Origin: a virus | Reading direction: 5' to 3' (one strand) | Virus record (IMG/VR): IMGVR_UViG_3300027297_000001 | Location: 1 to 34,504 of that record | DNA: 34,504 nt | Shown: positions 1 to 30,500 of the stretch, one piece after another | How the letters are laid out: every line of letters begins with the position of its first letter | Position numbering within the stretch: position 1 is the first letter of the stretch | Made by a program: the position numbers and the translations under genes | Notes under the pieces: generated by a model | What the model was told of the DNA's origin: nothing | Database searches by the model: none | Seen by the model: only the letters and a program-made list of their open reading frames with translations

Positions 1-99
1 AGCATGCGCTCCGGTGCCTGCAACTGCGCCGATTGCTGCATGCTCGTCATTTGCAGGGTTTTCGTCACGGTCGCGCCGCCGGTGATGGTGAATGGATTG
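1..99. repeat. Terminal direct repeat; identical to 34406-34504 (overlap of a circular assembly)
   Basis: Read directly: agcatgcgctccggtgcctgcaact...ggtgatggtgaatggattg is present at both window ends, so unique length is 34405 bp. Confidence 0.9.
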
Positions 100-296
100 T
101 TCTGCGGGATCGTGAAGAGGACTTGCTTCACGACGGCCGTGGAAACTGCCACTCCGTAATAATCCCATTCCGGTTGCACGACGAAATCGCCGAGGCCCGC
201 CGCCAGCATGTTACGCAGGCGGAATTTGGGCCGCCCGATTTCGTGCGCCGAAAGTTCCTGCAAATGCGAAAAGCATTTTGCATTGAGATGTTTCAT
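1..296 (-). CDS. Capsid-like beta-rich structural protein, N-terminal part (gene crosses the circular junction and continues 34405->33940; 253 aa in total)
   Basis: ATG at 294-296 (minus) with SD AAAGGAG about 9 nt upstream. It is in frame with ORF 33940..34473 through the 99-nt overlap (296-68=228 nt). N-terminus reads MKHLNAKCFSHLQELSAHEIGRPKFRLRNMLAAGLGDFVVQPEWDYYGVAV. Confidence 0.65.
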   Translation of the reverse strand, partial: MKHLNAKCFSHLQELSAHEIGRPKFRLRNMLAAGLGDFVVQPEWDYYGVAVSTAVVKQVLFTIPQNNPFTITGGATVTKTLQMTSMQQSAQLQAPERM

Positions 297-362: not shown

Positions 363-854
363 CTAGGACACGTATTTGCTATACGCGCGCCGCGGGCCGT
401 ACATGCCCATCGCGGACGTGGCCGCCGCAGGCGCCGCCGATTTTCCGGGCGACGTCTTGGAAGCCGATGCCGCGATGGCCGGGGCCTGTTGCTGATACGC
501 CGGAGTGGGGATCGTGAAATTTAACGGTCCATACTGGCCGAGCGTGAGCGACTTCCCGGTTGCCACGTTGACCGCGCGGGAAACCGCATTGACCGAACCG
601 CCGATCAACACGCCTTCCGCAAGGTCGGCACTCATTCCTTTGATCAGGAATGCGCCGCCGAACGCGACGACCAGAGCGGCAAACACTCCGGCCCATCCCG
701 TGCTGAACGATGGAGCGACCATGCCCGGCAAGGTTCCGGCCGCCAGCGCCCCGCCGACCGCGCCCGCCACTTTGACGGCGAGTTTGTTCATATCGCCGGC
801 GCCGAACGGGTTGTGACGACGGAACGGGTGAAACCCTTTTTTGTGATGCGCCAT
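363..854 (-). CDS. Gly/Ala-rich small membrane protein (163 aa)
   Basis: ATG 852-854 lies directly behind a strong SD AAGGAGGA. N-terminus MAHHKKGFHPFRRHNPFGAG is followed by glycine-zipper-like hydrophobic stretches (AVKVAGAVGGALAAG, GWAGVFAALVVAFGGAFLI). The longer start at 944 is not supported. Confidence 0.7.
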   Translation of the reverse strand: MAHHKKGFHPFRRHNPFGAGDMNKLAVKVAGAVGGALAAGTLPGMVAPSFSTGWAGVFAALVVAFGGAFLIKGMSADLAEGVLIGGSVNAVSRAVNVATGKSLTLGQYGPLNFTIPTPAYQQQAPAIAASASKTSPGKSAAPAAATSAMGMYGPRRAYSKYVS

Positions 855-945
855 AAATCCTCCTTCCCCGCCGTCTTTGTCCCCATGAATCCGACGACGC
901 CGGCGAGCGTCATACGTGGGATTGACAAGTCTGACGAGTTGCATA

Positions 946-2542: not shown

Positions 2543-3391
2543 CTATCTTTTCTTCCCCGTCAAATTATTCAGCAAAATCAAGCCGCCCAGCACGATCCCG
2601 ATATTTAGCGCGTTGTTTTCCAGGAACGATGTGATGTCCGTGGAAGAGGCCGATGCGGCCGCCGCGCTCGCGGTGCCAGGCGTCGAAACGATGGAAAGAT
2701 TCGACGTGCTCACGTTGTTTCCCACGATGCTCTGCATCGTTCCATCGCATACCGATTTCGCGTCACTAAGAAGCGCGTTACCGATCGAATCCAGAATCGT
2801 GAATTGGAAAGTGATCGCCGCGCCTGTGCCGAAAACGGCGTTGAGCACCGTTTCATTGTTGCTGGACGAAAGAACCGACATTCCATGCGCGTTCAGTTGC
2901 GACGCGAATTGAGACATCGCCGAGGTCGGAGAAACCGTCAAATCCCCAGGCCCGCCCACTACCGTGCAAACGTAAAGAAGAGTGCTTCCGCTCGGAACTT
3001 GCGCGGGCGCGCTCACGCTGGATGTAACCGTCGACGCCGGTGCAAGGGGAAGTGAACCGCCGGACGCCGCCGATCCCGCTGGAATCGTTGCGCCGTACTG
3101 CGCGTACAGCTGGGTGAGCGTGATATTTCCGTTAATCAAATTCGTCAAATCCTGATCCGTCGCGCCGAGCGAGTTGAGCAAATCAAGATCGCTTTGCGTG
3201 CACACTCCGGCAGCGAGCGCCGCTTCCTCTTCGGAAGAGGAAAACGATCCGAGCGTGATCGCGCCTGGCGCGTATCCCATGTGCGCCACGTAGCTGAGAG
3301 AGTGACCGCCTTTCAGATGAAACGCCCCGGACGAATAGCCCATGCCCGGGCGAAGCGAAGGCGCTCCGAATGCTCGATTGGGAAAAATCAT
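2543..3391 (-). CDS. C-terminally anchored Ser/Thr/Ala/Gly-rich membrane protein (282 aa), member of the paralog run
   Basis: The start MIFPNRAFG forms an ATGA overlap with the upstream stop (3388-3391). The C-terminus ...TSFLENNALNIGIVLGGLILLNNLTGKKR is a TM helix plus basic tail. The 28-codon N-terminal extension of the track ORF is rejected. Confidence 0.7.
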   Translation of the reverse strand: MIFPNRAFGAPSLRPGMGYSSGAFHLKGGHSLSYVAHMGYAPGAITLGSFSSSEEEAALAAGVCTQSDLDLLNSLGATDQDLTNLINGNITLTQLYAQYGATIPAGSAASGGSLPLAPASTVTSSVSAPAQVPSGSTLLYVCTVVGGPGDLTVSPTSAMSQFASQLNAHGMSVLSSSNNETVLNAVFGTGAAITFQFTILDSIGNALLSDAKSVCDGTMQSIVGNNVSTSNLSIVSTPGTASAAAASASSTDITSFLENNALNIGIVLGGLILLNNLTGKKR

Positions 3392-4026: not shown

Positions 4027-4733
4027 CGGCGCTTCTTTCCGCCCTGCAGGAGCACCGGAATAATCGCCACGGCCAGGATCCCGATTCCCACCACGCCGAT
4101 GTTGGGAATCCCCGGGATCAAATTCGCGGCGGACATCCAACTGGTAAGCGAAGTCAACGGATTCGTCGTTGGCGGCGCGGCGTAAAGATTGCCGGCGCTC
4201 AAAAGCGCCTGCCCCTGCGCCGTAAGTTTTCCCGCCGCCGTCACCAGTTGGCCGGACGCGTTGAGGGCCTGCGCCGCGGCCGTCAAATTGTTCGTCTGGA
4301 TCGTGGAAGTCACGCCGCTATTCGGATCGGTGAGCGTCACCGTGCCTTGCGTGGCCGTGGTGTCCAGGTTCGCGGTCGCCGCGCCCGTGGTCGCGCCGGT
4401 TACTTCCTGCGCGGTTGCGTAGGGAACGCTCTGCCCCGTCTGAATGTTCGTATACGTCCCATCGCCGTTGCTCACAAATTCCGTGCCCACCGTCGACGGA
4501 TACATCGATTCAATCGATGGCGAAACCACGTTCGTCGGCGGCAGCGTGGATAAATCGATAGGCGTGCTCGTATCGATCGGAGCGCCGGTGTCGATGATCG
4601 GAGTCGAATCGTAAGTCGGCGTCGTGTCAAACTCCGATGGATCCTGGCCGAGCCCGCGCATGCCGCAGCAACGCTTTCCGTTCGGGGCAACGGTCAGTCC
4701 GGGAAGCGGCGAATCCATTTGCGCGTAGGCCAT
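4023..4733 (-). CDS. C-terminally anchored Thr/Ala-rich membrane protein (236 aa) with MAYA leader-like N-terminus
   Basis: The start MAYAQMDSPLPG overlaps the upstream stop by 1 nt (TGATG at 4731-4735). Motif M-R-G-L-G lies at 4647-4661. The C-terminus is TSWMSAANLIPGIPNIGVVGIGILAVAIIPVLLQGGKKRR. Confidence 0.7.
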   Translation of the reverse strand: MAYAQMDSPLPGLTVAPNGKRCCGMRGLGQDPSEFDTTPTYDSTPIIDTGAPIDTSTPIDLSTLPPTNVVSPSIESMYPSTVGTEFVSNGDGTYTNIQTGQSVPYATAQEVTGATTGAATANLDTTATQGTVTLTDPNSGVTSTIQTNNLTAAAQALNASGQLVTAAGKLTAQGQALLSAGNLYAAPPTTNPLTSLTSWMSAANLIPGIPNIGVVGIGILAVAIIPVLLQGGKKRR

Positions 4734-5071
4734 CAGCGTTTCCGTCCCCATCCCTTGACCGCGATCAGCGCCAGGAAAGCGCCGCCGATCGCGAAAATGG
4801 AATTCGGCATTCCCGGCACATACGAAGATTGGCCAAGCCAGGTGAGCATTTCGTCCCACAAACTCGTTTGCGTCGGCGTCGTCGCGGAACTGATTTCAAA
4901 CTGTCCGCCTGGCCCGATCGTAAAAGTCGTGAGCGGGACATCGCCTATTCCGCGAAAGTTCGGATTGAGGCCCGCGCTCACCTTCGTCGAAAGCGGCGCG
5001 TACGATCCCATGCCGCGCAAATTCGGATGCAGCCCGGAAGTGTTTCGCGTAGTCAAGCGAGCGTAAGCCAT
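4733..5071 (-). CDS. Small C-terminally anchored membrane protein (112 aa) with duplicated leader-like motif
   Basis: ATG 5069-5071 behind SD AAGGAA. N-terminus MAYARLTTRNTSGLHPNLRGMG is followed by a second copy, GLNPNFRGIG. The C-terminus is LTWLGQSSYVPGMPNSIFAIGGAFLALIAVKGWGRKR. Confidence 0.7.
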   Translation of the reverse strand: MAYARLTTRNTSGLHPNLRGMGSYAPLSTKVSAGLNPNFRGIGDVPLTTFTIGPGGQFEISSATTPTQTSLWDEMLTWLGQSSYVPGMPNSIFAIGGAFLALIAVKGWGRKR

Positions 5072-5099
5072 CAGTTTTTTCCGTTCCTTGCCGGACTCA

Positions 5100-6029
5100 T
5101 CACAGCACCGCCAACGCGCCGATGATCGCCAACGCAACCCACGCCAGCGGCGGAACCGAAGCCAATCCGCTGCCGGGAACGCCGGGCGCGATCACCGAAT
5201 TGCCGGGCGCGGGAGTCGTGCCGCTCGAGGCGGCGGCCGCTTGCTGCGCTTCCGCCGCTTGCTGTTCGGCGATGGCCGCGTATTGCGCCTGCCAGTACAG
5301 CACCATCGCGTACAGAATCACGCTCATTTCGCAGTTACTATTGCAGTACGGGGAATCGTTGATAGACGTTCCCCCGCTGGGAATCGATCCCGGACCGGAC
5401 GCCGTTCCCGATGCCCCGCCTTGCTGCATGAACGTTTCGTACACCTGCAACAGCGCGGCTTGCGCCGTCGCCGGCGTCATTTGCCCGCCCTGGACGGCCT
5501 GTGCGATCAGCGAAAACGAATTGTTTACCGCCGGAAGCGCGGCGCATCCGAAACTCAGGTCGCGTTTCACGGCGGCCGCATGGTGAGCGAAAATCAATTC
5601 GATCACGGCAAAGATCGCGCCGATCCCCATCGTCACCGCGCCGGCGATCGCCGCCGTGGACGCCGCGATTACGGACGTCGAGGCGAGGATCCCGATTCCA
5701 GCCGAGGATGTGCCGAGCGCGAGGCCGCTGGCCGTCTGAAAAAGATTTACGTTCGATGGAGCGGTGCCGCAGGAAGGCGAATACCATCCCACATTGAATT
5801 GCCCGGCCGAAATTTGGTTTTCCGCCTCGGTGAGCCAGGATTGATCCCCGAAATCTTTCGGATTCAGGTGCGCGCCGGCATAGGCCGTGATGGCTTGCTG
5901 CATCGCCGCCTGCGCCGTGAGCGAGGCGGTCTGGCCAAGCATGCCGAGGCCGCGCAGCCTGCGTATGCCACGCAAGTTGGGATGCAGCCCCGAAGTGTTC
6001 GCGGTTCGTAGCATCGCGTACGCCATCAT
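5100..6029 (-). CDS. Multi-pass membrane protein (309 aa) with MAYA...NTSGLHPNLRG leader-like N-terminus
   Basis: The start MMAYAMLRTANTSGLHPNLRGIRRLRGLG forms an ATGA overlap with the stop of the protease gene (6026-6029). There are several hydrophobic segments (GIGILASTSVIAASTAAIAGAVTMGIGAIFAVIELIF; C-terminal PPLAWVALAIIGALAVL). The 130-codon upstream extension of the track ORF is rejected. Confidence 0.7.
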   Translation of the reverse strand: MMAYAMLRTANTSGLHPNLRGIRRLRGLGMLGQTASLTAQAAMQQAITAYAGAHLNPKDFGDQSWLTEAENQISAGQFNVGWYSPSCGTAPSNVNLFQTASGLALGTSSAGIGILASTSVIAASTAAIAGAVTMGIGAIFAVIELIFAHHAAAVKRDLSFGCAALPAVNNSFSLIAQAVQGGQMTPATAQAALLQVYETFMQQGGASGTASGPGSIPSGGTSINDSPYCNSNCEMSVILYAMVLYWQAQYAAIAEQQAAEAQQAAAASSGTTPAPGNSVIAPGVPGSGLASVPPLAWVALAIIGALAVL

Positions 6030-6832
6030 GCCGCCGCCATCCACAGCAAAGCGCCAAGCAAAATCACGCCGAAGATTTCCATTTCCTGCGTTGCGGCCGG
6101 AGTGGCCGCGGTCGATGGATTCAACAGCGTTGCGCCGCCCGGCCCCTGCGCGCCCGTATTCGCCGCCTGGACCAGTTGCCCGCCCACGGCCGTCAATCCC
6201 TGGCCGGCAATTTCCAAGCCGCTTGCCACCTGGCCGAGTCCGCGCACGCCGCGGCGCGCATAGCCGGCCATTCCCGCATCGCTCGAATAATCTCCGTGCG
6301 AATCGTCGATCAGGCTCCACCATTTGCGCCGATAGAAATGCGCCGGCGCCACTCCAAACACGGCGCCGGGCCGGGCCGCATCCAGCGGATACCACTGGCC
6401 ATCCTGAAAAACTTCGCAATAGACGTGGGAAAAAGAATCGGGCGCGTTCGGATCGCAGGCGATGGTGACGAGCCGCGTTTCGTAACCGATGGTGCCGAGC
6501 AAGGCGGGAAGGACGTTCGCATTGATATCGTCGCAGTCACCGGCATGCAACTGTAAAAGTTCCCGCGTGGGCCGCAGGGCTTCTTTCATCACCGGATCGT
6601 TCACGAAATAAAACGAATGCGCGAAATCGTAGATCGCGTGAATTTGTCCCCATGCATCGTACGGCGCGACGCCGGCGTTGCGGACGATATCGATCGCTGT
6701 GCGGTTGACGAACGGATCTTTCCAAGCATCGTCGACGAGGCGGCGCAAAAGTGAAATCGTTTGCGCCGTTCCATCGTCGCCGCCGGCAAGCGGGACGGAA
6801 TAAATCAGGCCAGGGGTCGCGTGGATTGCCAC
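6026..6832 (-). CDS. Transglutaminase-like cysteine protease domain protein with C-terminal TM anchor (268 aa)
   Basis: Cys-His-Asp core pattern of the transglutaminase-like superfamily: HAGDCDDINANVLPALLGTIGYETRLV ... FSHVYCEVFQDGQWYPLDAA. The C-terminal hydrophobic helix is MEIFGVILLGALLWMAAA. The start is GTG (6830-6832) and is the first gene after the divergent control region. Confidence 0.75.
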   Translation of the reverse strand: MAIHATPGLIYSVPLAGGDDGTAQTISLLRRLVDDAWKDPFVNRTAIDIVRNAGVAPYDAWGQIHAIYDFAHSFYFVNDPVMKEALRPTRELLQLHAGDCDDINANVLPALLGTIGYETRLVTIACDPNAPDSFSHVYCEVFQDGQWYPLDAARPGAVFGVAPAHFYRRKWWSLIDDSHGDYSSDAGMAGYARRGVRGLGQVASGLEIAGQGLTAVGGQLVQAANTGAQGPGGATLLNPSTAATPAATQEMEIFGVILLGALLWMAAA

Positions 6833-6850
6833 GGGCGCAATCTGCGCGCA

Positions 6851-6896
6851 GTGACATTTTTTGTCAATGATCGCTATTGTTGACGTTTTTTGTCAC
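6851..6896. promoter_or_regulatory. Two TGACA-N5-TGTCA inverted-repeat operator-like sites in the divergent control region
   Basis: gTGACAtttttTGTCAa (6851-6867) and tTGACGtttttTGTCAc (6880-6896). The same half-site architecture recurs at 10668-10700. Confidence 0.55.
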
Positions 6897-6922
6897 AGTT
6901 GGTTCCTATCCCTTGCATTCCA

Positions 6923-6952
6923 TTGACAATAGCTCGCAAACGAAGCTACTCT
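6923..6952 (+). promoter_or_regulatory. Sigma70-like promoter candidate for the plus arm
   Basis: TTGACA (6923-6928), 18-nt spacer, TACTCT (6947-6952), about 40 nt upstream of ATG 6993. Confidence 0.4.
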
Positions 6953-6992
6953 CTCCCCCGTTCGCATCCTACAGACGGAGATTCGTGACTCT

Positions 6993-8279
6993 ATGGCGAC
7001 AACAACGCGAAAAGTGGTGACGACGGAATACGTCCCGCCGGACGAAGCCCGGCCATCGGCCCGATACAGCGGGGATTTTTGGGAAATTATCAACGGGATC
7101 AGCACCGACGAGTGGGCGGATCACCTGGTCCGCGTCTACTACGCCAACGATCGATGGGAAAGCGCCGGAAGCCCGCCAGGAAATAAACTCACGAGCAAAT
7201 TCGACGAGGAATATATCCGGGACACATGGGGCGGCGGGCGCTACCTTCTGATTCTCTACGGTCCGCCAGGCGGCAGCAAACGGGTAGGCCAAACTTTCCA
7301 CGTTGAAATCGTGGGCACTCCACCAAAGCAATTCATCAGTGGGGGAGGGAAGCCCGCCTCGGAAGCGGACAGCGCCGGATCACAAACCGTGGCGCTCGAG
7401 GCCATGCGCATGTACGCGAATCCCGAATTCGTGCGTATGCAGATGCAAATGATGGTGACGGCGGCAACCGAGGCGATGGCACTGATCAAGAGCCAAATGC
7501 CGGCGGCGCAAAATCCGCTCGAAACCCTGCGAGCCGCAAAGGAAATTCTCGGCAGCGGAAATCACGAAGGCGGTTTGCTGGATACGCTTCGCGTCCTGAA
7601 AGAATTGGGTCTGGTCGGTTCGCCGGAGAAAAAAGGGATCGACGAAATTTTAGGACTGATCACCACGCTAAAAACTTCCGGGCTGATCAACAGCGGGGCG
7701 CAGAAGGCTGACATCGCCGCCACGTTTGCGAACAATATCCCGTTACTTGCCGATCGTTTTGTCGCGGGGCTCGAGCAACTGCGGTTGAAATCCGAATCGG
7801 ACGAGAGAACGATCCGCCTGCAGCGCGGAGAAATTCGCCAAAACGATCTCAATGTGATTACGATGGACCAGCAAAGGCAGCCGCCCTCCACACCGGCGGC
7901 GGGCGCGCCAACGCCCGCCGCTCCCGCCCCAGCTGCCACGGTCACGCCGGAAGTCGCGCAGGCTATCATCGCGCAGGCCCACTTGCACCGGCTCGTCGCT
8001 GGGATCAAGCAACCGAATTCGACGGGGCAGGATATGTACGATTATTTGGTGAACGCCTGGCCGGAAATCCTGGACGAGCTCGCCAAGATGAGCAAGGAAA
8101 CGCTGCTCGGGTTTTTCAAATCTCGCGAGATGCAGCGCACTTATTTTCAGTGCGAAATCCTGGCCGAAGTGGGAGACGATCCGCGCCTGCCGAAAATGAT
8201 CGAGGATTTTTTGAGGATCGCCAAACAGAACGAAATCCCGCCAGCCGCGGCGGGGAGTGCGCCGCAAACCGCAATATGA
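6993..8279 (+). CDS. Hypothetical protein (428 aa), first gene of the plus arm
   Basis: ATG 6993, long ORF with a helical, Ala/Leu/Gln-rich middle and a Pro/Ala linker (PPSTPAAGAPTPAAPAPAAT). No family recognised. Confidence 0.7.
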   Translation: MATTTRKVVTTEYVPPDEARPSARYSGDFWEIINGISTDEWADHLVRVYYANDRWESAGSPPGNKLTSKFDEEYIRDTWGGGRYLLILYGPPGGSKRVGQTFHVEIVGTPPKQFISGGGKPASEADSAGSQTVALEAMRMYANPEFVRMQMQMMVTAATEAMALIKSQMPAAQNPLETLRAAKEILGSGNHEGGLLDTLRVLKELGLVGSPEKKGIDEILGLITTLKTSGLINSGAQKADIAATFANNIPLLADRFVAGLEQLRLKSESDERTIRLQRGEIRQNDLNVITMDQQRQPPSTPAAGAPTPAAPAPAATVTPEVAQAIIAQAHLHRLVAGIKQPNSTGQDMYDYLVNAWPEILDELAKMSKETLLGFFKSREMQRTYFQCEILAEVGDDPRLPKMIEDFLRIAKQNEIPPAAAGSAPQTAI

Positions 8280-8600: not shown

Positions 8601-10058
8601 ATGACAAAACCTAATTCAGAAATTGCGCAGACGCTTCCCCATAACATCGAAGCGGAGCGCGCCATCCTCGGCGGCATTATGATCCACAATCCGGCTCTCG
8701 AAAGCGTGGCCGACAAACTTACGCCGGATGCTTTCTTCCACGTCAATCACAAAAAAATCTACGACGCCATCCTCGCCTTGCACGAAGACGAATTGCCGAT
8801 GGACGAAATTCATGTGATCGAATGGCTGTCCCAGGCCCGCACGCTCGAGATCGCGGGCGGCGCGGGATATATTTCCGCGCTGCTCGATGGCCGCCCCATC
8901 ATCAACAATCTTTCCAACTATGCGGACATCGTGGCCGGCAAAGCGCGCCTGCGAAAGCTGATCCGGGAAACGGAATTCGTCCAGAAGCGCGCCCTCGAGG
9001 GATGGGCCAATGTGGACGATCTGGAAACTCAGTTTCGCAGCGCGATTGAACTGACGGAACCAGGCGGAAACGGGAACGGCAACGGCCACAAGATCAGCTA
9101 CTCCACCACGGAGTTCCTGCAAAAAGACTGGCCCGAGCCGGAATATCTCGTCCAGGGTTTGCTTGCGCGTAATTCGCCTTCGATGATCGTGGCCATGCCG
9201 CACAGCCTGAAAAGTTTTTTCACCATCGGCCTTGCCTATTCGTGCTCCGTGGCCACGGAGAAAGCCCTCGGGCGATTGATGGTGCCAAAGGCGTTTCGGA
9301 CGATGCTCGTCCAGGTGGAAGAGTCCGGTGCGGAAATGAAAAAGCGGATCCGCGATTTCCTGGCCACGAAACAATTCCTGGATGTGGATCCCGACAATGT
9401 GCGGATCGTCCCACGCGAGGAATTTCCGCGCGAGGGCTTCACGGCAAAGTGGGCAAAGAAAGTGGTGACGGAAGCGCTGGAATTTAAGGCCGATCTGATC
9501 GTGTTCGATGTCTTGCGGCGCCTCTTCGTCGGCCACGGCGATATGAACGGCCCGCAGGACTCCGCTACCTTCCTCGAAATGATCGATGCCGTGCGCGACG
9601 TCACCGGAGCGAATACGCTGCTCGTCCATCACAAAAACAAGAAAGACGCCGAGATGATGTACTCCGCGGCCGGCAGCATCAATTTCTCGGGATGGGCCAA
9701 AACCTTCATCGAATTTAAAAATAAGAAAATCCTGCCGAACAACGTTTCCACGGTGGAAATCGAAACCGATACAGCCTACGGAGTTTCCGCCGACCCGATG
9801 CGCATGGTTCTCGATTTAACTTCCATCATGCCGTTGCGCCTTGAGGCGATCGAGGACGGCGACGATCTGGCCGAGGCCCTGCAACAGATGGACACGGAGT
9901 GGAACATCCGCACGCTGATGGAAGTGTTGGGCATTCCCCGCTCGAGCGCGCAGCGCCGCATCCGGGGATGGGAAAAAACCGGCGCGATCCATAAAGTATC
10001 CGGCGGCAAAAAAGGCCGCGGCGGTTTGGCGGTCTACACAAAAGGACTTGGCGAATGA
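8601..10058 (+). CDS. Replicative helicase-like protein: DnaB N-terminal domain + RecA/RepA-like P-loop domain + C-terminal HTH (485 aa)
   Basis: The N-terminus LPHNIEAERAILGGIMIHNPALESV...HKKIYDAILAL is the characteristic DnaB N-domain signature. The central part has Walker-B-like DLIVFDVLRRLF and a Walker-A position reading AMPHSLKS. The C-terminus is IRTLMEVLGIPRSSAQRRIRGWEKTGAIHKV. Confidence 0.8.
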   Translation: MTKPNSEIAQTLPHNIEAERAILGGIMIHNPALESVADKLTPDAFFHVNHKKIYDAILALHEDELPMDEIHVIEWLSQARTLEIAGGAGYISALLDGRPIINNLSNYADIVAGKARLRKLIRETEFVQKRALEGWANVDDLETQFRSAIELTEPGGNGNGNGHKISYSTTEFLQKDWPEPEYLVQGLLARNSPSMIVAMPHSLKSFFTIGLAYSCSVATEKALGRLMVPKAFRTMLVQVEESGAEMKKRIRDFLATKQFLDVDPDNVRIVPREEFPREGFTAKWAKKVVTEALEFKADLIVFDVLRRLFVGHGDMNGPQDSATFLEMIDAVRDVTGANTLLVHHKNKKDAEMMYSAAGSINFSGWAKTFIEFKNKKILPNNVSTVEIETDTAYGVSADPMRMVLDLTSIMPLRLEAIEDGDDLAEALQQMDTEWNIRTLMEVLGIPRSSAQRRIRGWEKTGAIHKVSGGKKGRGGLAVYTKGLGE

Positions 10059-10060
10059 CT

Positions 10061-10279
10061 CTAACTTTTACTCGCGGCCAACTCTCTCTTCAACATTTCT
10101 GCACGAAGTAGCTTTTTCGCGACATCGCGCAGTTCGTTCCCAAAAACTTTCTTCAATTGATCGCCATCGCTTGATGAAAAACTAATCCTTAAAACATAGT
10201 GGGTCTGACGGTAAACTTTGTCCGTTCCAGGATGGTTTGCTCGCCATCTTTGTTGGTAGATCGTCGCTGGTTTCACCAT
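10061..10279 (-). CDS. Small AT-rich-gene protein (72 aa), possible ribbon-helix-helix-type regulator
   Basis: ATG 10277-10279 behind SD GAGGAG with 7-nt spacing. This is the only minus-strand gene inside the plus arm and faces away from the iteron field. The segment VLRISFSSSDGDQLKKVFGNELRDVAKKLLRAEMLKRE is compatible with strand-helix-helix, but the functional call is weak. Confidence 0.5.
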   Translation of the reverse strand: MVKPATIYQQRWRANHPGTDKVYRQTHYVLRISFSSSDGDQLKKVFGNELRDVAKKLLRAEMLKRELAASKS

Positions 10280-10319
10280 CAATTTTCTCCTCTGTCGAAT
10301 ATATCACACGCTTAAAATT

Positions 10320-10639
10320 AAATGCCCACGGTGGGCATTTGGTATGTAACTTTTCTACCCATCGATTTTCTGTCTATTTCATCATTGCCCTGGAGAAAGG
10401 GGGCGAAAGCGGGCATTTGAGGCTTAAACCGAATACTCTCTATAGTTTCCAAATGCCCATTTAAATGCCCACTCCCTAGGGGGATATCGAACGATTCCTA
10501 ACCTAAAGCAAATGAACACAATAGCTTCCAAATGCCCACTCACCCCCTAAAAAGTGGGCATTTAATGGGCATTTAAATGGGCATTTAGGATGTCCTGTGT
10601 TTTGTACATACTAAGCCTGTTTTCGGGCCTAAATGCCCA
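10320..10639. repeat. Iteron field: 10 copies of AAATGCCCA/TGGGCATTT in both orientations (putative origin and/or operator array)
   Basis: Forward copies start at 10320, 10451, 10463, 10530 and 10631. Reverse copies are at 10332-10340, 10411-10418 (1 mismatch), 10555-10563, 10566-10574 and 10578-10586. Spacing inside the tandem sets is 12 nt. Palindromic pairs are at 10320-10340 and 10530-10563. The region is visibly AT-rich and non-coding. Confidence 0.8.
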
Positions 10640-10667
10640 TTTTCTCTCCCTCTCCCGGACCCCCTGA

Positions 10668-10700
10668 GTGACAAAATTTGTCACTGACAAAATTTGTCAC
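10668..10700. promoter_or_regulatory. Two tandem TGACA-N5-TGTCA palindromes (operator-like)
   Basis: gTGACAaaattTGTCAc at 10668-10684 is followed immediately by TGACAaaattTGTCAc at 10685-10700. Confidence 0.6.
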
Positions 10701-21281: not shown

Positions 21282-21309
21282 CGTCAAGCGAATGGACTAT
21301 GCCGGGATT

Positions 21310-21615
21310 CTACCACGGGTTTTTCCTCGGGGCGCTGCATTCCAGTTGATCGGCTAGTTCGTCGAACTTGCCGAGGGCCTTCGTCAATTCCTCGAAATTC
21401 TCGGCGCTGATTTCTATTTCCTTGCCGAGCGTGATCCCGTTCTCCCGGAAGGCGCCGGGATAAAACAAGGCGGGCTTCGCCTGCATTTCCGCCGCCTTGC
21501 TGATGGCGCTGGCCATCGCCATCATCGGATCGCGCCCGGGATCTGGCGCGGGAACCGGAATCGGATCAGGCAGGCGCGAGGCTTGGATCGTGATTTTCAA
21601 CTGGTAGTTTGCCAT
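21310..21615 (-). CDS. Hypothetical protein (101 aa)
   Basis: ATG 21613-21615 directly after hairpin A copy 2. Sequence starts MANYQLKITIQASRLPDPIPVPAPDPGRDP. Confidence 0.6.
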   Translation of the reverse strand: MANYQLKITIQASRLPDPIPVPAPDPGRDPMMAMASAISKAAEMQAKPALFYPGAFRENGITLGKEIEISAENFEELTKALGKFDELADQLECSAPRKNPW

Positions 21616-21650
21616 CGTTTTATTTGCGCACTCTATGTGCGCTATCTCCC
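21616..21650 (-). promoter_or_regulatory. Hairpin motif A, copy 2
   Basis: In gene sense: AGAGGGAGATA-GCGCAC-ATAGA-GTGCGC-AAATAAAACG-ATG. The hairpin is at 21626-21642. Confidence 0.6.
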
Positions 21651-21653
21651 TCT

Positions 21654-21866
21654 TTAAGAATCATCCGCAAGTTTATCAATCGATATGACAATGCCCGAAC
21701 CGTGGCAGATCAGACATTTCGCTGATTCGTATTCGCGCGTCGTCATAGCGAAGCCGTCGACTGGCTTACGCGTTATTTCGTCCCGCCAGGGTTGCGTGCG
21801 CTCGCTGTGCACGATCAATACCCATCCCTTGCCGTCGCATCCGTGGCATGTTTTGTGTTTGGACAT
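21654..21866 (-). CDS. DnaJ-type zinc-finger mini-protein (70 aa)
   Basis: Two CxxCxGxG motifs, CHGCDGKGW and CLICHGSGI. Confidence 0.6.
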   Translation of the reverse strand: MSKHKTCHGCDGKGWVLIVHSERTQPWRDEITRKPVDGFAMTTREYESAKCLICHGSGIVISIDKLADDS

Positions 21867-21870
21867 CAGA

Positions 21871-22539
21871 CTACTTTGCGGCGGTGGCGACCTGCGCGGC
21901 CGGGCCGGCGAATTCCATCAGAAAACTTTTGATCACGTTCCACGTTCCGCGCACGGGAGTGGTTTCCCGGTGGACGAAGCCGCGAATATCGCCGCTCGTG
22001 GCGTCCAGATTGCCCGCCACGCCGTCCACATGCGCCAGCGTTTCATGGATCGCGGGATCGGACATCGCTGCCGCCGCGGCCGTCGTCGCGTGGATCCCGC
22101 CATCGATCATCGGCCGCAGCGCGCCGATCGTATCGTCGATTTTGATCGTGGTGTCCGTCAGATCGCGTGCGGCGTCCGTTTCAAGGGCCGTCGTTCCGTC
22201 CAGGGCCGCGGCTACGCGCGGCAGCACCGTCGCATTAAACACCGTCAATGTGGTGTTGGCGGTATCAAACAGCGTGTTCGTTCGTGCGGTAAGACCGCGA
22301 AAATAATTTTGCTGTTCTTGAAACGCGTTCCGTTCCTGCGCTCCCACCTGCGCGAAGGTCTTCGCCGCGGCCGCGATTTGCGCCAGAGCGTTTTTGATGG
22401 GCAACGCCAGGCCGACCGTCTGCCCCGTGATCTTGTCCGAATTGATTCTTTCTTCGCGAATAAATAAGCCGGCTTCGACGAGCAAAAACAGCACGCCAGA
22501 TGTGGCGGCGCCGAGGCAGATTTTTTCAAAGAGTTTCAA
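21871..22539 (-). CDS. N-terminally anchored, helix-rich membrane protein (222 aa)
   Basis: The TTG start forms a TTGA overlap with the upstream stop. TM segment ICLGAATSGVLFLLVEAGLFI is followed by a long Ala/Thr/Asp-rich helical region. Confidence 0.55.
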   Translation of the reverse strand: MKLFEKICLGAATSGVLFLLVEAGLFIREERINSDKITGQTVGLALPIKNALAQIAAAAKTFAQVGAQERNAFQEQQNYFRGLTARTNTLFDTANTTLTVFNATVLPRVAAALDGTTALETDAARDLTDTTIKIDDTIGALRPMIDGGIHATTAAAAAMSDPAIHETLAHVDGVAGNLDATSGDIRGFVHRETTPVRGTWNVIKSFLMEFAGPAAQVATAAK

Positions 22540-22973
22540 GCCGCTGCGCCCTTTCGTCTAGTGTCTTTTTTCTCGCGTGCTTTCCTCATTCGCTCGCCTT
22601 TTTGTTCCACGGATTTGATTTCCTGTTCACTCAATTTCCAGAGATAGCCGCTTTCGCCGACGATGCGGACTCCGATGCGCAGATTCCCGGCCAGTGCGTA
22701 CCGTTGCGCGGTCGTCAGAATGACTTTCTTGAAAATTTTCATGCTCACTTTGAGCGCGTGCCCGGCCTGTAGAGATTTCACGGCGGCATAAAGTTTGCCG
22801 GCCGCCTCGTTGTAACGGGCATTGCTCGGAACTTCGGACATCGTGACGATAGCATAGCCGTCCGACTCGGCGGTGGGGGCCTTCGGTACCGCACGCGGCT
22901 TGTGCATCAGACATTTTTTGTCGCCTTCCACTGCCATATAAACGCAGCCTTTTTCGTCGCAGCGCATTGCCAT
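22536..22973 (-). CDS. Hypothetical protein (145 aa) with basic C-terminus
   Basis: ATG 22971-22973 behind GAGGGAAAC. Starts MAMRCDEKGCVYMAVEGDKKCLMHKP and ends ...KGERMRKAREKKDTRRKG. Confidence 0.6.
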   Translation of the reverse strand: MAMRCDEKGCVYMAVEGDKKCLMHKPRAVPKAPTAESDGYAIVTMSEVPSNARYNEAAGKLYAAVKSLQAGHALKVSMKIFKKVILTTAQRYALAGNLRIGVRIVGESGYLWKLSEQEIKSVEQKGERMRKAREKKDTRRKGAAA

Positions 22974-23031
22974 CTAAGTTTCCCTCACGAATACAAAGTC
23001 ACGATCAGCCACTCCACCATTCCCCACAGCG

Positions 23032-23175
23032 TCATTGCCGTGAGCGTCGCCAGCGTCCCCACGGCCAGCCCAAAAAGCGCGCCAGCAAGAATATAAACGG
23101 CACTCCGTAGACGCCGATGATGGCCAGCGCGAAGAGGAAGAGTACCGCGATGATGGTGGCCTTTGCGGGCGACAT
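23032..23175 (-). CDS. Possible 47-aa TM mini-protein directly after the endolysin (holin-like position)
   Basis: The ATG follows the endolysin stop directly (TGAATG). Sequence MSPAKATIIAVLFLFALAIIGVYGVPFIFLLARFLGWPWGRWRRSRQ. It is below the track cut-off. Confidence 0.35.
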   Translation of the reverse strand: MSPAKATIIAVLFLFALAIIGVYGVPFIFLLARFLGWPWGRWRRSRQ

Positions 23176-23655
23176 TCAGCTTCCGAAAGTAGGAACGTTT
23201 AAAGAATCCCACACGGCCTGCACGCCATCGACTTTGCATATTTGCTGGGCAGCCTCCGATGGTTCGGTGGGCACTTCCACGAGCTCGAGGTGCGGCAGAT
23301 CGTGCCAGGATTTGCCGTCGCGCAGGCCGTATTGCGGCGCGAGGGCCACGATACGCTGCCAGGCCGGATGCGACGCGTCCCAATCCGGCTGGCTCGTGTC
23401 TACATTCTCAACCCACACGTCCACGGCGCAGCCGATCACATGGTTCGATTGGAATCCGCGCGCGTCCGTGACGATTTTCCCCGGCATCGTGCGCCCCACG
23501 GCGAATAGGTTGTCCTGTTGCTGCGCGGTGCGCAGGCCGGCGTCAATCTGGATGGCGATGTCTTCCGCCGCCAGCGCGTCCGCCAGATTCTTCACGCGGC
23601 GCTGCAATTCGGGATGGGTTTCTTCGAGGCGGGCTAGTGAGATGTTGGATAGCAT
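23176..23655 (-). CDS. Peptidase M15 (VanY / L-alanyl-D-glutamate peptidase-like) cell-wall hydrolase (159 aa)
   Basis: The zinc-ligand pattern of the family is present: H...SNHVIGCAVDV ... GKSWHDLPHLEL. The N-terminus is LARLEETHPELQRRV. Confidence 0.8.
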   Translation of the reverse strand: MLSNISLARLEETHPELQRRVKNLADALAAEDIAIQIDAGLRTAQQQDNLFAVGRTMPGKIVTDARGFQSNHVIGCAVDVWVENVDTSQPDWDASHPAWQRIVALAPQYGLRDGKSWHDLPHLELVEVPTEPSEAAQQICKVDGVQAVWDSLNVPTFGS

Positions 23656-23855
23656 GCAATCTCCCTCGTAGGTTCGTCAAGGAACGCGCGCAGCCCGAAG
23701 CGGTGATAAAAACGATCTTTGACCGGACATCCCGCGCCAGGCCCGCGGTCCCATATGCGAAACGCGCCATTTCTTATCACGTCCCGCGTCTGGCGCAAAG
23801 CGAGAAATTCACAGTTGGGATTTGTAGCGCTGGCGGCGAGTTCGTACAGAGTCAT
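23634..23855 (-). CDS. Hypothetical protein (73 aa)
   Basis: ATGA overlap with the transglycosylase stop (23852-23855). Sequence starts MTLYELAASATNPNCEFLALRQTRDVIRNGAFRIW. It overlaps the M15 start by 22 nt. Confidence 0.45.
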   Translation of the reverse strand: MTLYELAASATNPNCEFLALRQTRDVIRNGAFRIWDRGPGAGCPVKDRFYHRFGLRAFLDEPTREIACYPTSH

Positions 23856-24361
23856 TCGAGAAAACTCCAAAGAGCAAGCCCGGCGATGGCGGCGCCCACA
23901 ACCCACAAAACAGTTTCGGCGCTCCATCCGGTCGGCACGGGAACGCTCGCTTGCCCCGCGGGTGTGGAAGTGAGTCCCGGAACCGATGGCACGGCGGCCG
24001 CGGCTGGCGCGAGGTAAGCCTGATAGGCGCCGGAATTGTACGTCGACCAGGGAGAAAACCCGCCCGCGATGGAGTAGATTTCGTACGCATCGTTCGCGTT
24101 GGTTTGGGGATCGTAGAGATTGTCGTTCGCGTATTCGGGATGATCTTTCAAATAAATCTGCCAGAGCCCGTACGATCCCTCGCCGGGGGGAGTCCCGCCA
24201 GACGCGGCCGTTTCGGGATTGTAGATGTTCGGGTTGCCCTGGCTTTCGGCGAGCGCGATGGCCACGGCGGTTTGCAAATCCTGCCCGTCGAAGCCGGCCG
24301 TCTGCGCGTAGTACAGGATTTGCGCCGGCGTCAAGATCGTTGCGGTGGGAACGTTGGTCAT
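23852..24361 (-). CDS. Lytic transglycosylase (SLT/lysozyme-like) with C-terminal TM anchor (169 aa)
   Basis: AVAIALAESQGNPN...GSYGLWQI...Y matches the SLT catalytic Glu-Ser and GLxQI motifs. The C-terminus is WSAETVLWVVGAAIAGLALWSFLE. Confidence 0.75.
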   Translation of the reverse strand: MTNVPTATILTPAQILYYAQTAGFDGQDLQTAVAIALAESQGNPNIYNPETAASGGTPPGEGSYGLWQIYLKDHPEYANDNLYDPQTNANDAYEIYSIAGGFSPWSTYNSGAYQAYLAPAAAAVPSVPGLTSTPAGQASVPVPTGWSAETVLWVVGAAIAGLALWSFLE

Positions 24362-27571: not shown

Positions 27572-30500
27572 TCAGAACGATTCGCAATCCCAATTCGCGC
27601 CCGCCGCCGAGGCCGACACTAAGACAGACCTGCAAGTGACGTGCTTTAAATTTGCAATCACAAGGGTTGTGTTAGTCCCATTCACGGTCTGGCCCGAAAT
27701 GGCGGCACCAATCGTGACTGTATTGGCCCCGGTTGTTTGGATGTTTTCTCCATTGCAAGTTTTCCCAACAAGCGGAATTGCATCCGGCAAATTAAGCTGA
27801 ATACTTCCGCCGGAGGGATCGGCTTGCCATCCCGCTCCACAGTCCGCATAGTTTAAATAGAGAGTCCCACCTACCGTTCCTGGCTTGAGGGCGCTGACAA
27901 TAATCCCCATTTTCGCGGCGGGCGTGATGTTCGCCGTCGCGGTGTATGCTCCCGCGACGCGCGCGATCATAGATTGTGTATTCATCGTGAATTGCACGCC
28001 CGACCCCGCCACGCTCGGAAGGAAATTGCCAGATTGATACCAACCAAGCGGCGGGTTTGTGTATACGGATGCGCTCAGTCCAGTTGCGCTATCTGCGAAG
28101 GTCGAAGCACGCAAAAAATCGTTAGCAACGGTTGTGGTAATGGATGGCGTGATGGCAGTTGTTTGAGACCCGGCGGTCGATCCGCATCCAGAGGCCACAT
28201 CAATGACCGAAGTGGTCGCGGTGCGCTGGTCCTCGGTCATGAAAATATTTACAGAGGAAGCGGCTGTACTCGAAAAAGTGATCGTCACGGTGGTTGCTCC
28301 ACCTACAGCATTCGGGGCACTGTAGCGAACAATGTTCAGATTTCCTCCGGACGGATACACGCAGGAAGCATGATCTGCAGTAAAAGTGTCTCCGGGACCA
28401 TCGGTGACTGTGGAAATTGTCGGCCCCCCCGTGAGCCACTGGATAGCCACACCGAGTGTACTTCCTGGAGTCACAGTGACCGGGAATGTGCATGTGGCCG
28501 TTGCAACACCTGGATTCCCGATGGTGCACGCATAATCGGGCTGAACCGTGTAAGGAAACACCGCATTTCCAACTTTGTAAATATTGGGCTGCGCGTTGGT
28601 TCCGAATGCCGCCGCGTCGTATTGAACATGGGCGCTCATATAGGGGCCGAGGTAGGCATCATCAGAAATTTGCGTGGGATGGATGTGGTCGGCTTGGAAA
28701 TAGGTTCCGCTTGACGATGCTCCATCCGCGCCAAGATTCGGTTGCGCAGCCCAATCCATGACATCGTTGCAAACAGTAGGCAGCGAGGCGCGCGCGAGCG
28801 TGTTGTACTGATTAATGATAGCGTCCGACGATCCCGTCCCCGCTTTGAGAGTGGTCGAAGCAATCGTATAAAATCCGGCCCTGGATGCCGCGCGGCACCA
28901 GGAAAGTTCATATTGGAGAGCCTGTTCGGGCGTTGCCAGTTCGCCTGCACGCAGATCATTTGTCGGCCCATCATTTAAGGCAATATTCCAAGGCGCAGTT
29001 GGCGTGAGATATTGCGGAAGCGTGGCAAGCGTGTCCTCGGAGCCAAGTTGAATGTACGTGTTGCTGTATGCTTGGTTCACAACATTCCAAGGTACTGTCC
29101 CTGGCAAATTGAGTCGATAGTTCATGGGGCCGTTAATCCCCTGTCCCACGACAATCGAGGTTCCTGTCAGGTTTAGCTTGTTGACTTGCGACGTGGCCAA
29201 GATCGGAAAATAACCTTCGATCTGCGCGAGTGATTGAAACGCCTGCCATTCTGCCGTGATTTGCGCCTGCGTGGGCGCAACGGTGAGGAATTCCATTCCA
29301 ATGACCGTCATACTGGAAAAAATGCCAGTGATACCCCAAGCAGTGCCAAAGAGTTGAACGTTCCCCGCACTCATCGCTCCAAAAGAGGAAGCAGGCGTAT
29401 AGCCTGCATAGGAATTCACTTTTTGATTATTGAGGTATAGCGCATCGGGGCTTCCAGGGATGAAAGTGATCATGCCCACGCCGTTGAGACCGTCCGGGCT
29501 GGTACTCGGTGCACCGCTGCCGATCGGTTGAATATCCAAGACATTAAATTGCCGTCCGGGCGCGCTATTGCTTAAATCTAAAATCAGGTTGTTATTGTTG
29601 GCCGCGTTGGTTCCGCCGAGAAGGACTTGATACATACCGCCAAATTGCGAACCGGCGACAACTGCCGCTTGCTGCATATAATTTCCAGGATCGTTGTAAG
29701 TAAGATAGATCAATACGGCGGCGTAATTCGATTGATTAAATGGAAACGTAACGGAGCAATTAGCATTAGTAGCGGTTATGCCGTAGGCTGGGCCGAGATT
29801 AAGTGTCACAGTTCCATTGACGCAGGCACCAATGGTGCCAGTGCGGTTGTTGCCAGAACTGTCTGCGATACTCGTACCGGAACCGTCTCGAAAGAGATAT
29901 CTGGCATAAACGCTCGTTCCCGTGAGCGCAAAAGGAATTGGCGGAATTGATGGTCCAGCATTGATCCAATTCGTCTGACACGTTCCACCGGAAGGCGCCG
30001 CGCTATCAAGCACCTGCCCGGCTGTGGGATTTGCGGTTGGCTGCAATAGAGCGCATGGACTAGCCGGCCCGATCGACGACGGTCCCGAGAAGATCGCAAA
30101 CTCATTTGCTGCGGGACTTCCAGTCGTCGTTACGGTTCCAAGAGTGGCGAAATTCGTCAGCTTCGGCGCTGCGGCGTTTAACGTGGCGCTGATATCCATC
30201 GTCACGCCAGTAATCGCGATGGTAACGGAAAAAGTCTGTGGGCCAGTTCCGAAAGGCCCTGGAATTCCGCCTTGATTGGAATTGACGGTGATCAACCATT
30301 GACTCAAAGCTGGTAGGATTTGCGAATTGTTTCCGAAATTTGCGGAGAAGTGGCCATTGGAATCGAGCGGGACGGTGTTGATCTGCCCGGAATAAGGAAG
30401 CACGACTCCGTTGTTATTTAACGTCCATCCGCCAGGCGATCCCGGAACGAGAACGGCGCTCATCGTTCCATTGCCATAAGGAATGCCATTCGGATCCGTG

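Follow-up and report, generated by a model that had tools for sequence, protein, structure and literature searches.

The viral DNA analysed here (IMG/VR record IMGVR_UViG_3300027297_000001, positions 1 to 34,504; hereafter the window, 34,504 nucleotides in its full length), from a virus associated with soil Acidobacteriota, carries on its minus strand a row of six genes, A to F. The first of them encodes a membrane-anchored enzyme of the transglutaminase-like (TGase-like) superfamily, and the three genes directly after it encode membrane proteins with related N-terminal leaders ending in the pentapeptide [LMVF]-R-G-[LMI]-G. The same pentapeptide occurs once in the enzyme itself, in the tether between its catalytic domain and its membrane anchor. 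This pairing of enzyme and motif was detected in three deep viral lineages, one of them including the cultured phage SSIP-1 (in full, Salisaeta icosahedral phage 1; GenBank JN880423).

An earlier note on this DNA had proposed that N-terminal propeptides of virion membrane proteins, and the tether of the enzyme itself, are removed by the gene A product during maturation. After the analysis described below, we regard as the best explanation, and give even chances to, the interpretation that gene A encodes a maturation protease and that the leaders of its neighbours are its sites, cleavage being predicted from sequence comparison. The fuller statement, that a packaged, membrane-tethered TGase-fold protease trims tail-anchored virion proteins and itself at hydrophobic-x-G-[L/M]-G, both in the SSIP-1 lineage and in a large uncultured group of Acidobacteriota-associated circular genomes of about 35 kb, is put forward more tentatively, at slightly under even chances.

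The enzyme, the motif and the leaders

Gene A is a member of the transglutaminase-like superfamily, as seen in its profile match, in the order of its catalytic triad and in its fold. The protein matched Pfam PF01841 (Transglut_core) over residues 62-152 with 25.5 bits (gathering cutoff, 23; E = 1.7e-5), and so did most of its 232 homologues in the databases, many of which are encoded on contigs of 34-39 kb. Residues C100 (within GDCDD), H136 (SHVY) and D151 (LDAA) were invariant in an alignment of 31 homologues with identities down to 42%. In an alignment with PDB entry 3ISR, a putative cysteine protease, each of the three falls on its counterpart Cys, His or Asp position. In the AlphaFold2 (AF2) model built on this alignment, residues 20-185 or so formed a confident core, with a predicted local distance difference test score (pLDDT) above 84 for most of them, the tether of residues 186-226 was disordered (pLDDT below 50), and the C-terminal hydrophobic stretch, present in all homologues, formed a helix. 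The Foldseek neighbours of the model in PDB included 3ISR (E = 6.8e-6), PNGase, 3KD4, LapG, CPR-C4 and TG2, with pseudomurein endoisopeptidases and true transglutaminases as weaker neighbours; transamidases, PNGase, amide synthases and N-acetyltransferases were all found among the top structural matches. The Cys-His-Asp transglutaminase-like core, which the earlier note had recognised from the sequence alone in this first gene of the late arm, is thus borne out by the Pfam match, the invariant triad, the 3ISR alignment, the AF2 model and the Foldseek neighbours, and the enzyme looks catalytically intact. The N-terminus of the protein, MAIHATPGLIYS, is without a hydrophobic signal segment. A tblastn search of gene A against isolate phages gave nothing. 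Scans with Pfam, PHROGs and NCBIfam detected no second protease in the window.

When all six frames of the 34,504 bases were scanned for [LMVF]RG[LMI]G, there were exactly five matches, all in the coding frame of genes A to D and all at the places where the motif had been reported before (see the table). One of them lies, as had been proposed, between the catalytic domain and the transmembrane anchor of gene A, within the segment that AF2 leaves disordered. The earlier note had suggested testing the predicted proteins for enrichment of the motif. The strict motif is limited to genes A to D, and the loose core G[LM]G is not enriched overall, with 8 copies observed against 7.1 expected in 8,790 amino acids of predicted proteins. 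The placement of the loose core is nevertheless biased, five copies being located within the first 40 residues of their proteins (B26, C20, D27, F16 and residue 34 of the protein encoded across the junction of the circular genome; binomial p = 0.0025) and a sixth in the gene A tether. The copy in the junction protein (AAGLGD) was considered as a further site and rejected: it sits where the predicted order of that protein begins, but distant homologues have GMLE, GQLE or GFLE instead.

Related leaders are present, in agreement with the earlier note, in the three genes directly following the enzyme gene, and looser versions were found also in genes E and F. The gene B protein has internal hydrophobic segments beyond its leader and a C-terminal membrane helix. 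Gene C carries two leader units in tandem, followed by a region of about 69 residues that ends in PGMPN, a membrane helix and GRKR, and gene D carries a variant leader and the C-terminal anchor PGIPN, helix and GGKKRR. Gene E, a paralogue of D through its C-terminal half and anchor, starts with the short variant MIAWNTPFMG, of which its homologues conserve only a short MIAxNxPxLG. In gene F, degenerate 'GY.PGA...LG' units come after the N-terminus, and a membrane helix and GKKR form the C-terminal end. Each of the proteins B to F ends in a hydrophobic helix, with a basic tail after the helix in C to F. Genes C, D and E, and their homologues in loci L002-L030, have in common a paralogous C-terminal module, 'W[LM]..PG[IM]PN + helix + GG(K/R)(K/R)RR'. 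The layout of this module (motif, helix and basic tail) resembles that of C-terminal sorting signals. Proteins B to F and most late proteins had no family match in PHROGs, NCBIfam or Pfam.

None of the proteins A to F has a hydrophobic N-terminal signal segment and all of them have C-terminal helices, so that the enzyme and the leaders should be located in one compartment, on the same side of the membrane. The motif of gene A and the second unit of gene C stand at a similar distance, about 45 residues, from the membrane helix.

Conservation in related viruses and in SSIP-1

Since the motif expression was defined post hoc, the real test is its conservation in independent sequences, and that test was passed. 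The related loci comprised 15 from IMG/VR, 80 from metagenomes and two copies within contigs of metagenome-assembled genomes (MAGs) of Acidobacteriota, one of Candidatus Angelobacter (L016, 190 kb) and one of an uncultured member of the phylum (L017, 4.5 Mb), both with the TGase gene and its downstream block. For the census of the strict motif, 90 non-redundant loci with a total of 883 kb were used. The motif was found on the TGase strand in 113 of 126 matches, and by inspection most matches were in the TGase tether or within the first 45 or so residues of the following genes. Motif and TGase-like gene therefore co-occur non-randomly across very divergent viruses, which is what the alignment of homologues suggested in the earlier note was meant to reveal.

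Among close relatives the leader is a unit of about 21 residues, AYAxLSTRNxNGLHPN[FL]RG[LM]G, in which Y2, T7, P15, R18 and G19 were invariant in 34 unique units. The unit begins right after the initiator Met or right after the Gly of a preceding unit; it is Asn-rich (TRNxNG..PN) and has no conserved Gln or Lys. It is kept in 18 loci in the gene B family alignment, and the tandem units of gene C, always two in its homologues, are kept in 16 loci; the leader unit belongs to the best conserved parts of both proteins. Tandem leaders have been re-invented in a distant lineage (MAAYV..LLRGMG..TLRGMGD). Gene D has 16 homologues, many of them with extra YQPGAHALLG units past the motif, and the homologues of D and F add two or three tandem 'GY[QA]PGAHA[LM]LG' units, which likewise end in [LM]-G. 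The Gln of this type-2 unit is replaced by Ala in gene F of the window and in several homologues. Distant gene F homologues (loci L014, L069 and L073) have LRGLRGLG or LRGLG at the same place.

In distant lineages the leaders differ but the ending stays the same, for instance in MAAYVSTRQRLLRGMGETYAFVPRRRTLRGMGD (tandem), MPTVTYARETQGFRPWTNPKPLAGLRGLGQ, ..KLHGLGQ, ..RLSGLGD and ..FLAGLGD. From MAYA..RGLG through MAAYV..RGMG and MPTVTYARE..LRGLG to ..HGLG and ..SGLG, the leader diverges and the terminal core persists; a changing leader with a persisting terminal core is the pattern typical of a processing site. The strict pentapeptide is confined to closer relatives, and deep lineages relax it to [GAS]-[LM]-G-[DQAS]. 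The tether of the enzyme shows the same behaviour. It conserves the consensus MAGYxxxGxRGLG, in which G198 and L199 each reach 90% or more. Of 83 TGase tails, only 17 have the strict motif, as against 78 with G[LM][GAN] or [LM]G[DQE] within 60 residues past the catalytic domain.

The three deep lineages in which the enzyme is paired with the motif are the Acidobacteriota-associated elements of about 35 kb, the low-GC contig L015, and SSIP-1 with its relatives. In each of them a TGase-like gene is followed by genes for C-terminally anchored proteins with G-[LM]-G in the first 40 or so residues. L015, a viral contig of 35 kb with 49% GC, encodes at 9749-10578 the catalytic domain as a separate open reading frame (ORF) of 184 residues (TGase identity, 34%). 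In place of the tether and anchor, the next ORF (ORF85, 85 amino acids) starts with MASCGCTAGVSGLGIEIDW and ends in a membrane helix ('MASCGCTAGVSGLG..+helix' in short form). To judge from gene order, this arrangement looks like a natural split of the fused gene at the motif. Comparison of ORF85 with the fused tails matched only the 5-residue motif, or gave a pairwise E of 0.08, which is not significant. The idea that the TGase tail is itself a fused C-like protein was rejected: when the tail profile was compared by hhalign with the families of B, C, D, E and F, no probability exceeded 17%.

SSIP-1 is a phage of 43.8 kb with an internal membrane and two types of major capsid protein (PMC6356626). 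Its gp34, a protein of 304 amino acids annotated as structural, has a match to Pfam PF01841. In hhalign against the window family, gp34 was matched with 98.6% probability (E = 8.8e-16) using a profile of 88 sequences and with 96.2% using a profile of 31 sequences, and BLASTP gave E = 0.002. The identity is only about 23%. The best match of the gene A model among predicted viral structures (BFVD) was I1ZBG7, of 304 residues (E = 1.9e-10), which is probably gp34 of SSIP-1. Gene A and gp34 are alike in having the catalytic domain, a tether with the core (ARGMG in gp34) and a C-terminal membrane helix. Four late proteins of SSIP-1 carry an N-terminal G[LM]G, namely ORF36 (AQGMGD, 17), gp37 (NRGLGA, 34), ORF52 (RAGLGL, 18) and gp53 (DPGMGS, 31), the TGase and motif blocks being located at 21296-23783 and 38636-39777 of the SSIP-1 genome. 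In the SSIP-1-like locus L099 (3086-7840), each of the five database-called genes that follow the TGase gene encodes a protein with GLG between residues 10 and 40, four of them encode C-terminal helices, and the block ends at a homologue of the gp40 packaging ATPase. In a further locus, L100 (1579-3127), the tether contains HRGLGQ and the next gene starts with MNSTAPHPGLGAK.

By homology, and by the tether core, the helix and the downstream G[LM]G proteins, gene A can be placed among what we propose, informally, as a family of SSIP-1 gp34-like TGase proteins. The notion that the products of genes A to F are virion components gains indirect support through the structural annotation of gp34 and of the motif-bearing gp37 and gp53, an annotation that concerns SSIP-1 and not the proteins of the window. 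The two viruses differ in host phylum and genome size. A kinship of the whole viruses was also considered and rejected: 14 late-protein families were compared with 29 SSIP-1 proteins, and apart from the TGase nothing exceeded 50% probability (the best other profile match being that of 33217-33825 with gp47, at 50%), nor did BLAST reveal anything else. Of the relatives of gene A, gp34 is the closest to come with some experimental background. No assigned function for it was found in its GenBank entry or in such literature as could be searched, and literature searches gave no link of TGase-like proteins to SSIP-1 or to membrane phages. In a tblastn search, gp34 matched weakly (E = 1e-3, 75 residues around the catalytic Cys) to positions 7845-8078 of BK065156.1, Geoglobus acetivorans pleomorphic virus 1. 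This match in a membrane-enveloped archaeal virus hints that TGase-like proteins recur in membrane-containing prokaryotic viruses.

Proposed maturation and other explanations

Based on these comparisons, a pathway of maturation can be proposed. The gene A product, on the same membrane face as its substrates, would bind to the leader units by recognition and cleave them either at G-[L/M]-G or directly behind it. The N-terminal extensions of B, C, D and F, and weakly that of E, would be removed during particle assembly, and the gene A tether would be cut at its own copy of the motif, freeing the catalytic domain from its anchor. The leader may act in two steps, first in targeting and assembly or in recognition by the enzyme, and then as the part to be removed; such a double role, of which the capsid-targeting sequences of phage T4 and the leader-dependent peptidases are known examples, would reconcile the docking and the cleavage of the leader. 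Papain-like enzymes typically have a hydrophobic S2 pocket, so that Leu or Met at P2 together with a small residue at P1 suits an active site of this type. As a candidate substrate for residues 1-185 of gene A, the leader-type peptide AYARLTTRNTSGLHPNLRGMG-SYAP is proposed. In favour of proteolysis, the end of the leader appears as its only invariant part across lineages, the additional repeat types also end in [LM]-G, and the family libraries detect no other protease in the window.

Several observations weigh against this proposal. The whole 21-residue unit is conserved among close relatives, which would suit a peptide that binds a partner no less than a discarded propeptide; conservation so far beyond a cleavage site argues that the leader has a role of its own, for instance in recognition or assembly, which a simple discarded propeptide does not capture. 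With the strict motif in only 17 of the 83 tails and a loose [LM]-G in deep lineages, the enzyme would need a loose specificity. Some viral enzymes of the TGase fold have other roles, such as the pseudomurein endoisopeptidases, and the similarity of the TGase tail to protein C or to ORF85 of L015 is not significant. In SSIP-1 the enrichment of N-terminal G[LM]G is marginal (4 of 10 copies, p = 0.08), although L099 and L100, taken together with it, make it convincing. AF2 also leaves the tether motif of gene A disordered and undocked from the active site. Docking of this VRGLG in cis in the active-site cleft was set aside as a candidate, a tether with pLDDT below 50 giving no evidence either way.

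The conservation of the leader as a whole, even of the residues right after the initiator Met, is what would be expected if the leader were never cleaved but served as a docking peptide, binding a common partner (for example an assembly factor, or the capsid shell on its inner face) and recruiting the membrane proteins, the enzyme included; the enzyme would then have a different job, such as cutting host cell-wall peptides at entry or exit, as other lytic enzymes of virions do. We consider this unlikely, although it is the main rival. Tandem duplication of the unit, which recurs in separate lineages, would raise avidity, and the similar spacing of motif and helix in A and C fits a docking function. 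The phage TGase-fold isopeptidases PeiP and PeiW are among the structural neighbours (rank 33 in PDB, E = 6e-3; rank 8 among predicted viral structures, E = 7e-3), and a membrane-anchored SLT lytic transglycosylase is encoded in the same genome, which therefore does anchor lytic enzymes by C-terminal helices. That transglycosylase, however, already supplies a lytic activity, and putative proteases are matched much more strongly than Pei. A change of everything but a short terminal core between lineages would moreover be unusual for a peptide fitting a conserved pocket, and the extra units of YQPGAHALLG type would not be expected all to share the [LM]-G ending. If the leaders were docking signals after all, they would still represent a motif, not recognised before, that targets membrane proteins of the virion.

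The chemistry of gene A could also be other than hydrolysis of a peptide bond. The fold family, with transamidases, PNGase, amide synthases and N-acetyltransferases among the top matches, includes enzymes that might act as acyl-transferases or deamidases, cross-linking or modifying the leaders, or cutting and ligating them in a sortase-like manner, so as to staple the membrane proteins together or fasten them to the shell. The richness of the leaders in Asn, and the Gln often present in the repeat units of D and F (YQPGAH), would suit such a reaction, but neither Gln nor Lys is conserved in the main unit, Ala stands in for the type-2 Gln in gene F and several homologues, and the small/hydrophobic/small core invariant across lineages is no known acyl-donor or acceptor signature; we regard this chemistry as rather improbable. 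Less probable still is that another protease, of the host or an unrecognised one of the virus, cuts the motif and that gene A is just a substrate encoded first in the operon. Its tether copy makes gene A formally a substrate, and with so many window proteins lacking a detectable family a hidden protease could be among them. Yet the link between the TGase gene and the motif genes holds across differing GC contents and in a different host phylum (Salisaeta), which makes a single host protease unlikely, and family-library scans of the window found no further protease domain. Finally, the motif might have no specific function and merely reflect the paralogy of small neighbouring membrane proteins of low-complexity, Gly- and Leu-rich sequence. 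The C-terminal anchors of C, D and E are clearly paralogous and G[LM]G is not over-represented overall; against this stand the strong positional bias of G[LM]G in the window, the rank of the leader unit as one of the most conserved stretches in B and in C, and the survival of the motif through leader replacement, together with its presence in SSIP-1-like phages and in the tether of the TGase, which is not a paralogue, so that we give this explanation hardly any weight.

Genome context and comparison with known systems

The ends of the window are identical over 99 bases (1-99 and 34406-34504), and the genome is therefore circularly closed and complete, with 34,405 bp. The two relatives inside Acidobacteriota MAG contigs indicate, by association, a host in this phylum. 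These copies also suggest that the element can integrate or be carried; no integrase was identified in the window. The region of genes A to F is best explained as the beginning of the operon for late, structural genes. Its six genes come after a divergent control region (6833-6992) on the minus strand and are translationally coupled, with stop and start codons overlapping as ATGA. The positions of these and other features are collected below.

Features of the window, with positions counted from its first base
Feature	Position	Strand	Remarks
Gene A	6832-6026	-	268 aa
Catalytic triad of gene A	6380-6535	-	Cys100 6533-6535; His136 6425-6427; Asp151 6380-6382
Gene A tether segment MAGYARRGVRGLG	6233-6271	-	residues 188-200; leader-like, ends VRGLG
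VRGLG	6233-6247	-	gene A tether
Gene A C-terminal membrane helix	6032-6091	-	residues 248-267
Gene B	6026 (or 6029)-5100	-	308 aa; start MAYAML / MMAYAML
Gene B leader MAYAMLRTANTSGLHPNLRGIRRLRGLG	5943-6026	-	residues 1-28
LRGLG	5943-5957	-	gene B
Gene C	5071-4733	-	112 aa
Gene C first leader unit (tandem)	5006-5071	-	residues 1-22
LRGMG	5006-5020	-	gene C, first unit
Gene C second leader unit (tandem)	4943-5005	-	residues 23-43
FRGIG	4943-4957	-	gene C, second unit
Gene D	4733-4023	-	236 aa
Gene D variant leader MAYAQMDSPLPGLTVAPNGKRCCGMRGLG	4647-4733	-	residues 1-29
MRGLG	4647-4661	-	gene D
Gene E	4026-3388	-	212 aa
Gene F	3391-2543	-	282 aa
Gene F N-terminus MIFPNRAFGAPSLRPGMG	3338-3391	-	variant LRPGMG at 3338-3355
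Operator-like palindrome TGACAAAANNTGTCA, first pair	6852-6866, 6881-6895	-	directly upstream of gene A, within the divergent control region
Operator-like palindrome TGACAAAANNTGTCA, second pair	10669-10683, 10685-10699		low-GC region past the helicase gene
Weak sigma-70-like promoter match	6896-6867	-	consensus match only; overlapped by TGACAAAANNTGTCA copies
Lytic transglycosylase gene	23852-24361	-	169 aa; Pfam SLT_3, E = 2.7e-23; C-terminal hydrophobic helix
Junction-spanning gene	33940-34405 joined to 1-296	-	253 aa

The palindrome TGACAAAANNTGTCA is confined to two places of the genome, twice in each (six matches with both strands counted, against 0.02 expected by chance), and its copies are probably binding sites of one regulator controlling late transcription. 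About a dozen copies of AAATGCCCA(T/C), in both orientations and some of them forming perfect 21-nt inverted repeats, lie at 10318-10656, just downstream of a DnaB-like helicase gene (8601-10058), in a stretch (GC 0.456) that is the one low-GC part of the genome. This iteron-like array is a probable replication origin. The replication and modification genes comprise the helicase and two DNA methyltransferases.

A tailless particle containing a membrane, of the internal-membrane icosahedral type, is suggested. Library scans of the window proteins found no terminase, portal or tail families, and many of the late proteins are small and hydrophobic; a Walker-A scan of the late arm for a packaging ATPase was negative. 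The lytic transglycosylase is a second enzyme anchored like gene A. The junction-spanning protein is the most conserved of the family, with 85-95% identity where the TGase has 62-70%; its AF2 model is beta-rich, and its best PDB matches were jelly-roll capsid proteins, none of them significant (best, SPV1 6OJ0, E = 0.016). The protein of 193 amino acids encoded at 363-944 (minus strand) has a basic N-terminal third rich in Arg and His (MQLVRLVNPTYDARRRRR...HHKKG...RRHNPF), a conserved 'RRNPFAAG[SD]' and then a hydrophobic part rich in Gly and Ala, and its distant homologues are more basic still; it could condense DNA or link it to the membrane. It was considered as a carrier of a further site and is not counted, 'RRNPFAAG[SD]' being a different motif. 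At 27572-30610 (minus strand), a protein of 1012 amino acids with the signal-like hydrophobic N-terminal segment MKKNLFAALVLAGAFLFTSPAAVSG had no family in library scans, and the adjoining 30701-31876 encodes a protein of 391 amino acids, also with a signal-like segment. Both are candidates for spike or receptor-binding proteins.

Among known enzymes of the same fold, LapG (BTLCP, C93) is a Cys-His-Asp protease that takes off an N-terminal segment of a single dedicated substrate associated with the envelope, LapA, at a di-alanine TAAG site. It resembles gene A at the level of fold (4FGP/4FGQ, E about 1e-3). Gene A gave no BTLCP match in Pfam at E <= 0.1 and is not assigned to that family; unlike LapG, it has no signal peptide and is not periplasmic, and its proposed substrates are a set of viral membrane proteins with the site G-[L/M]-G in place of A-A. 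The B protein of lasso-peptide systems (TGase-like, PF13471) and the C39 peptidases are cysteine proteases encoded beside their substrates, which recognise a leader and cut after small residues. Their leader recognition resembles the strong conservation of the whole leader observed here. Gene A and the neighbouring genes scanned had no PF13471 or C39 match in Pfam and belong to neither family, and the scanned genes included neither a cyclase nor a leader-recognition element nor an ABC transporter. The motif G-[L/M]-G differs from the GG or GA of C39 leaders, and the 'cores' here would be membrane-anchored proteins of 70-280 residues, in contrast to short secreted peptides. Pei (C71) is a lysin of archaeal phages in which a TGase-like domain is joined to N-terminal cell-wall-binding repeats. 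Gene A showed no such repeats, either in its sequence or in its AF2 model, and is not counted as a Pei protein, and the nearest MAG copies of gene A are bacterial (Acidobacteriota).

In bacteriophage T4, a common N-terminal peptide, the capsid-targeting sequence, directs internal proteins into the particle and is then removed by the protease of the particle. This prohead protease, gp21, is a serine protease of the herpesvirus-assemblin type with (L/I)-x-E sites, and T4 is a tailed phage without a membrane. The window resembles this system in having several proteins with a common, short, conserved N-terminal peptide; nothing of the gp21 type was detectable in it. Maturation by proteolysis has, as far as we know, not been described for tailless phages that contain a membrane (PRD1-, PM2-, P23-77- and SSIP-1-like), whose eukaryotic structural relatives (adenoviruses, virophages and giant viruses) depend on cysteine maturation proteases. 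If our interpretation is true, gene A would be, as far as we know, the first maturation protease described for membrane-containing phages and a new catalytic scaffold among viral maturation proteases. It would also provide a function for a gene labelled only 'transglutaminase-like' in hundreds of soil viral contigs, and a handle on the loading of the inner membrane with proteins and its coupling to the shell. The interpretation is open to direct test, as SSIP-1 and its host are in culture and the cleavage positions can be predicted to the residue.

A parallel in site shape and logic is adenain, the adenovirus protease (peptidase family C5), which cuts at (M/I/L)-X-G-X|G and (M/I/L)-X-G-G|X and belongs to clan CE, with the catalytic order His-Glu-Cys. 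The likeness of the sites, drawn already in the earlier note, holds in shape, [LMVF]-R-G-[LMI]-G fitting the first adenain consensus letter for letter, but does not extend to homology: the fold of gene A is transglutaminase- or papain-like, its catalytic order is Cys-His-Asp, and no adenain or Ulp1 entry was among the 50 best structural matches listed for it. Gene A is, in addition, membrane-anchored, and nothing pointed to a cofactor of peptide or DNA for it. In both systems several virion precursors would be trimmed at their ends during maturation, and in both the protease itself would be packaged if the structural annotation of gp34 carries over to gene A. The two enzymes would then have converged in site shape and logic on unrelated scaffolds.

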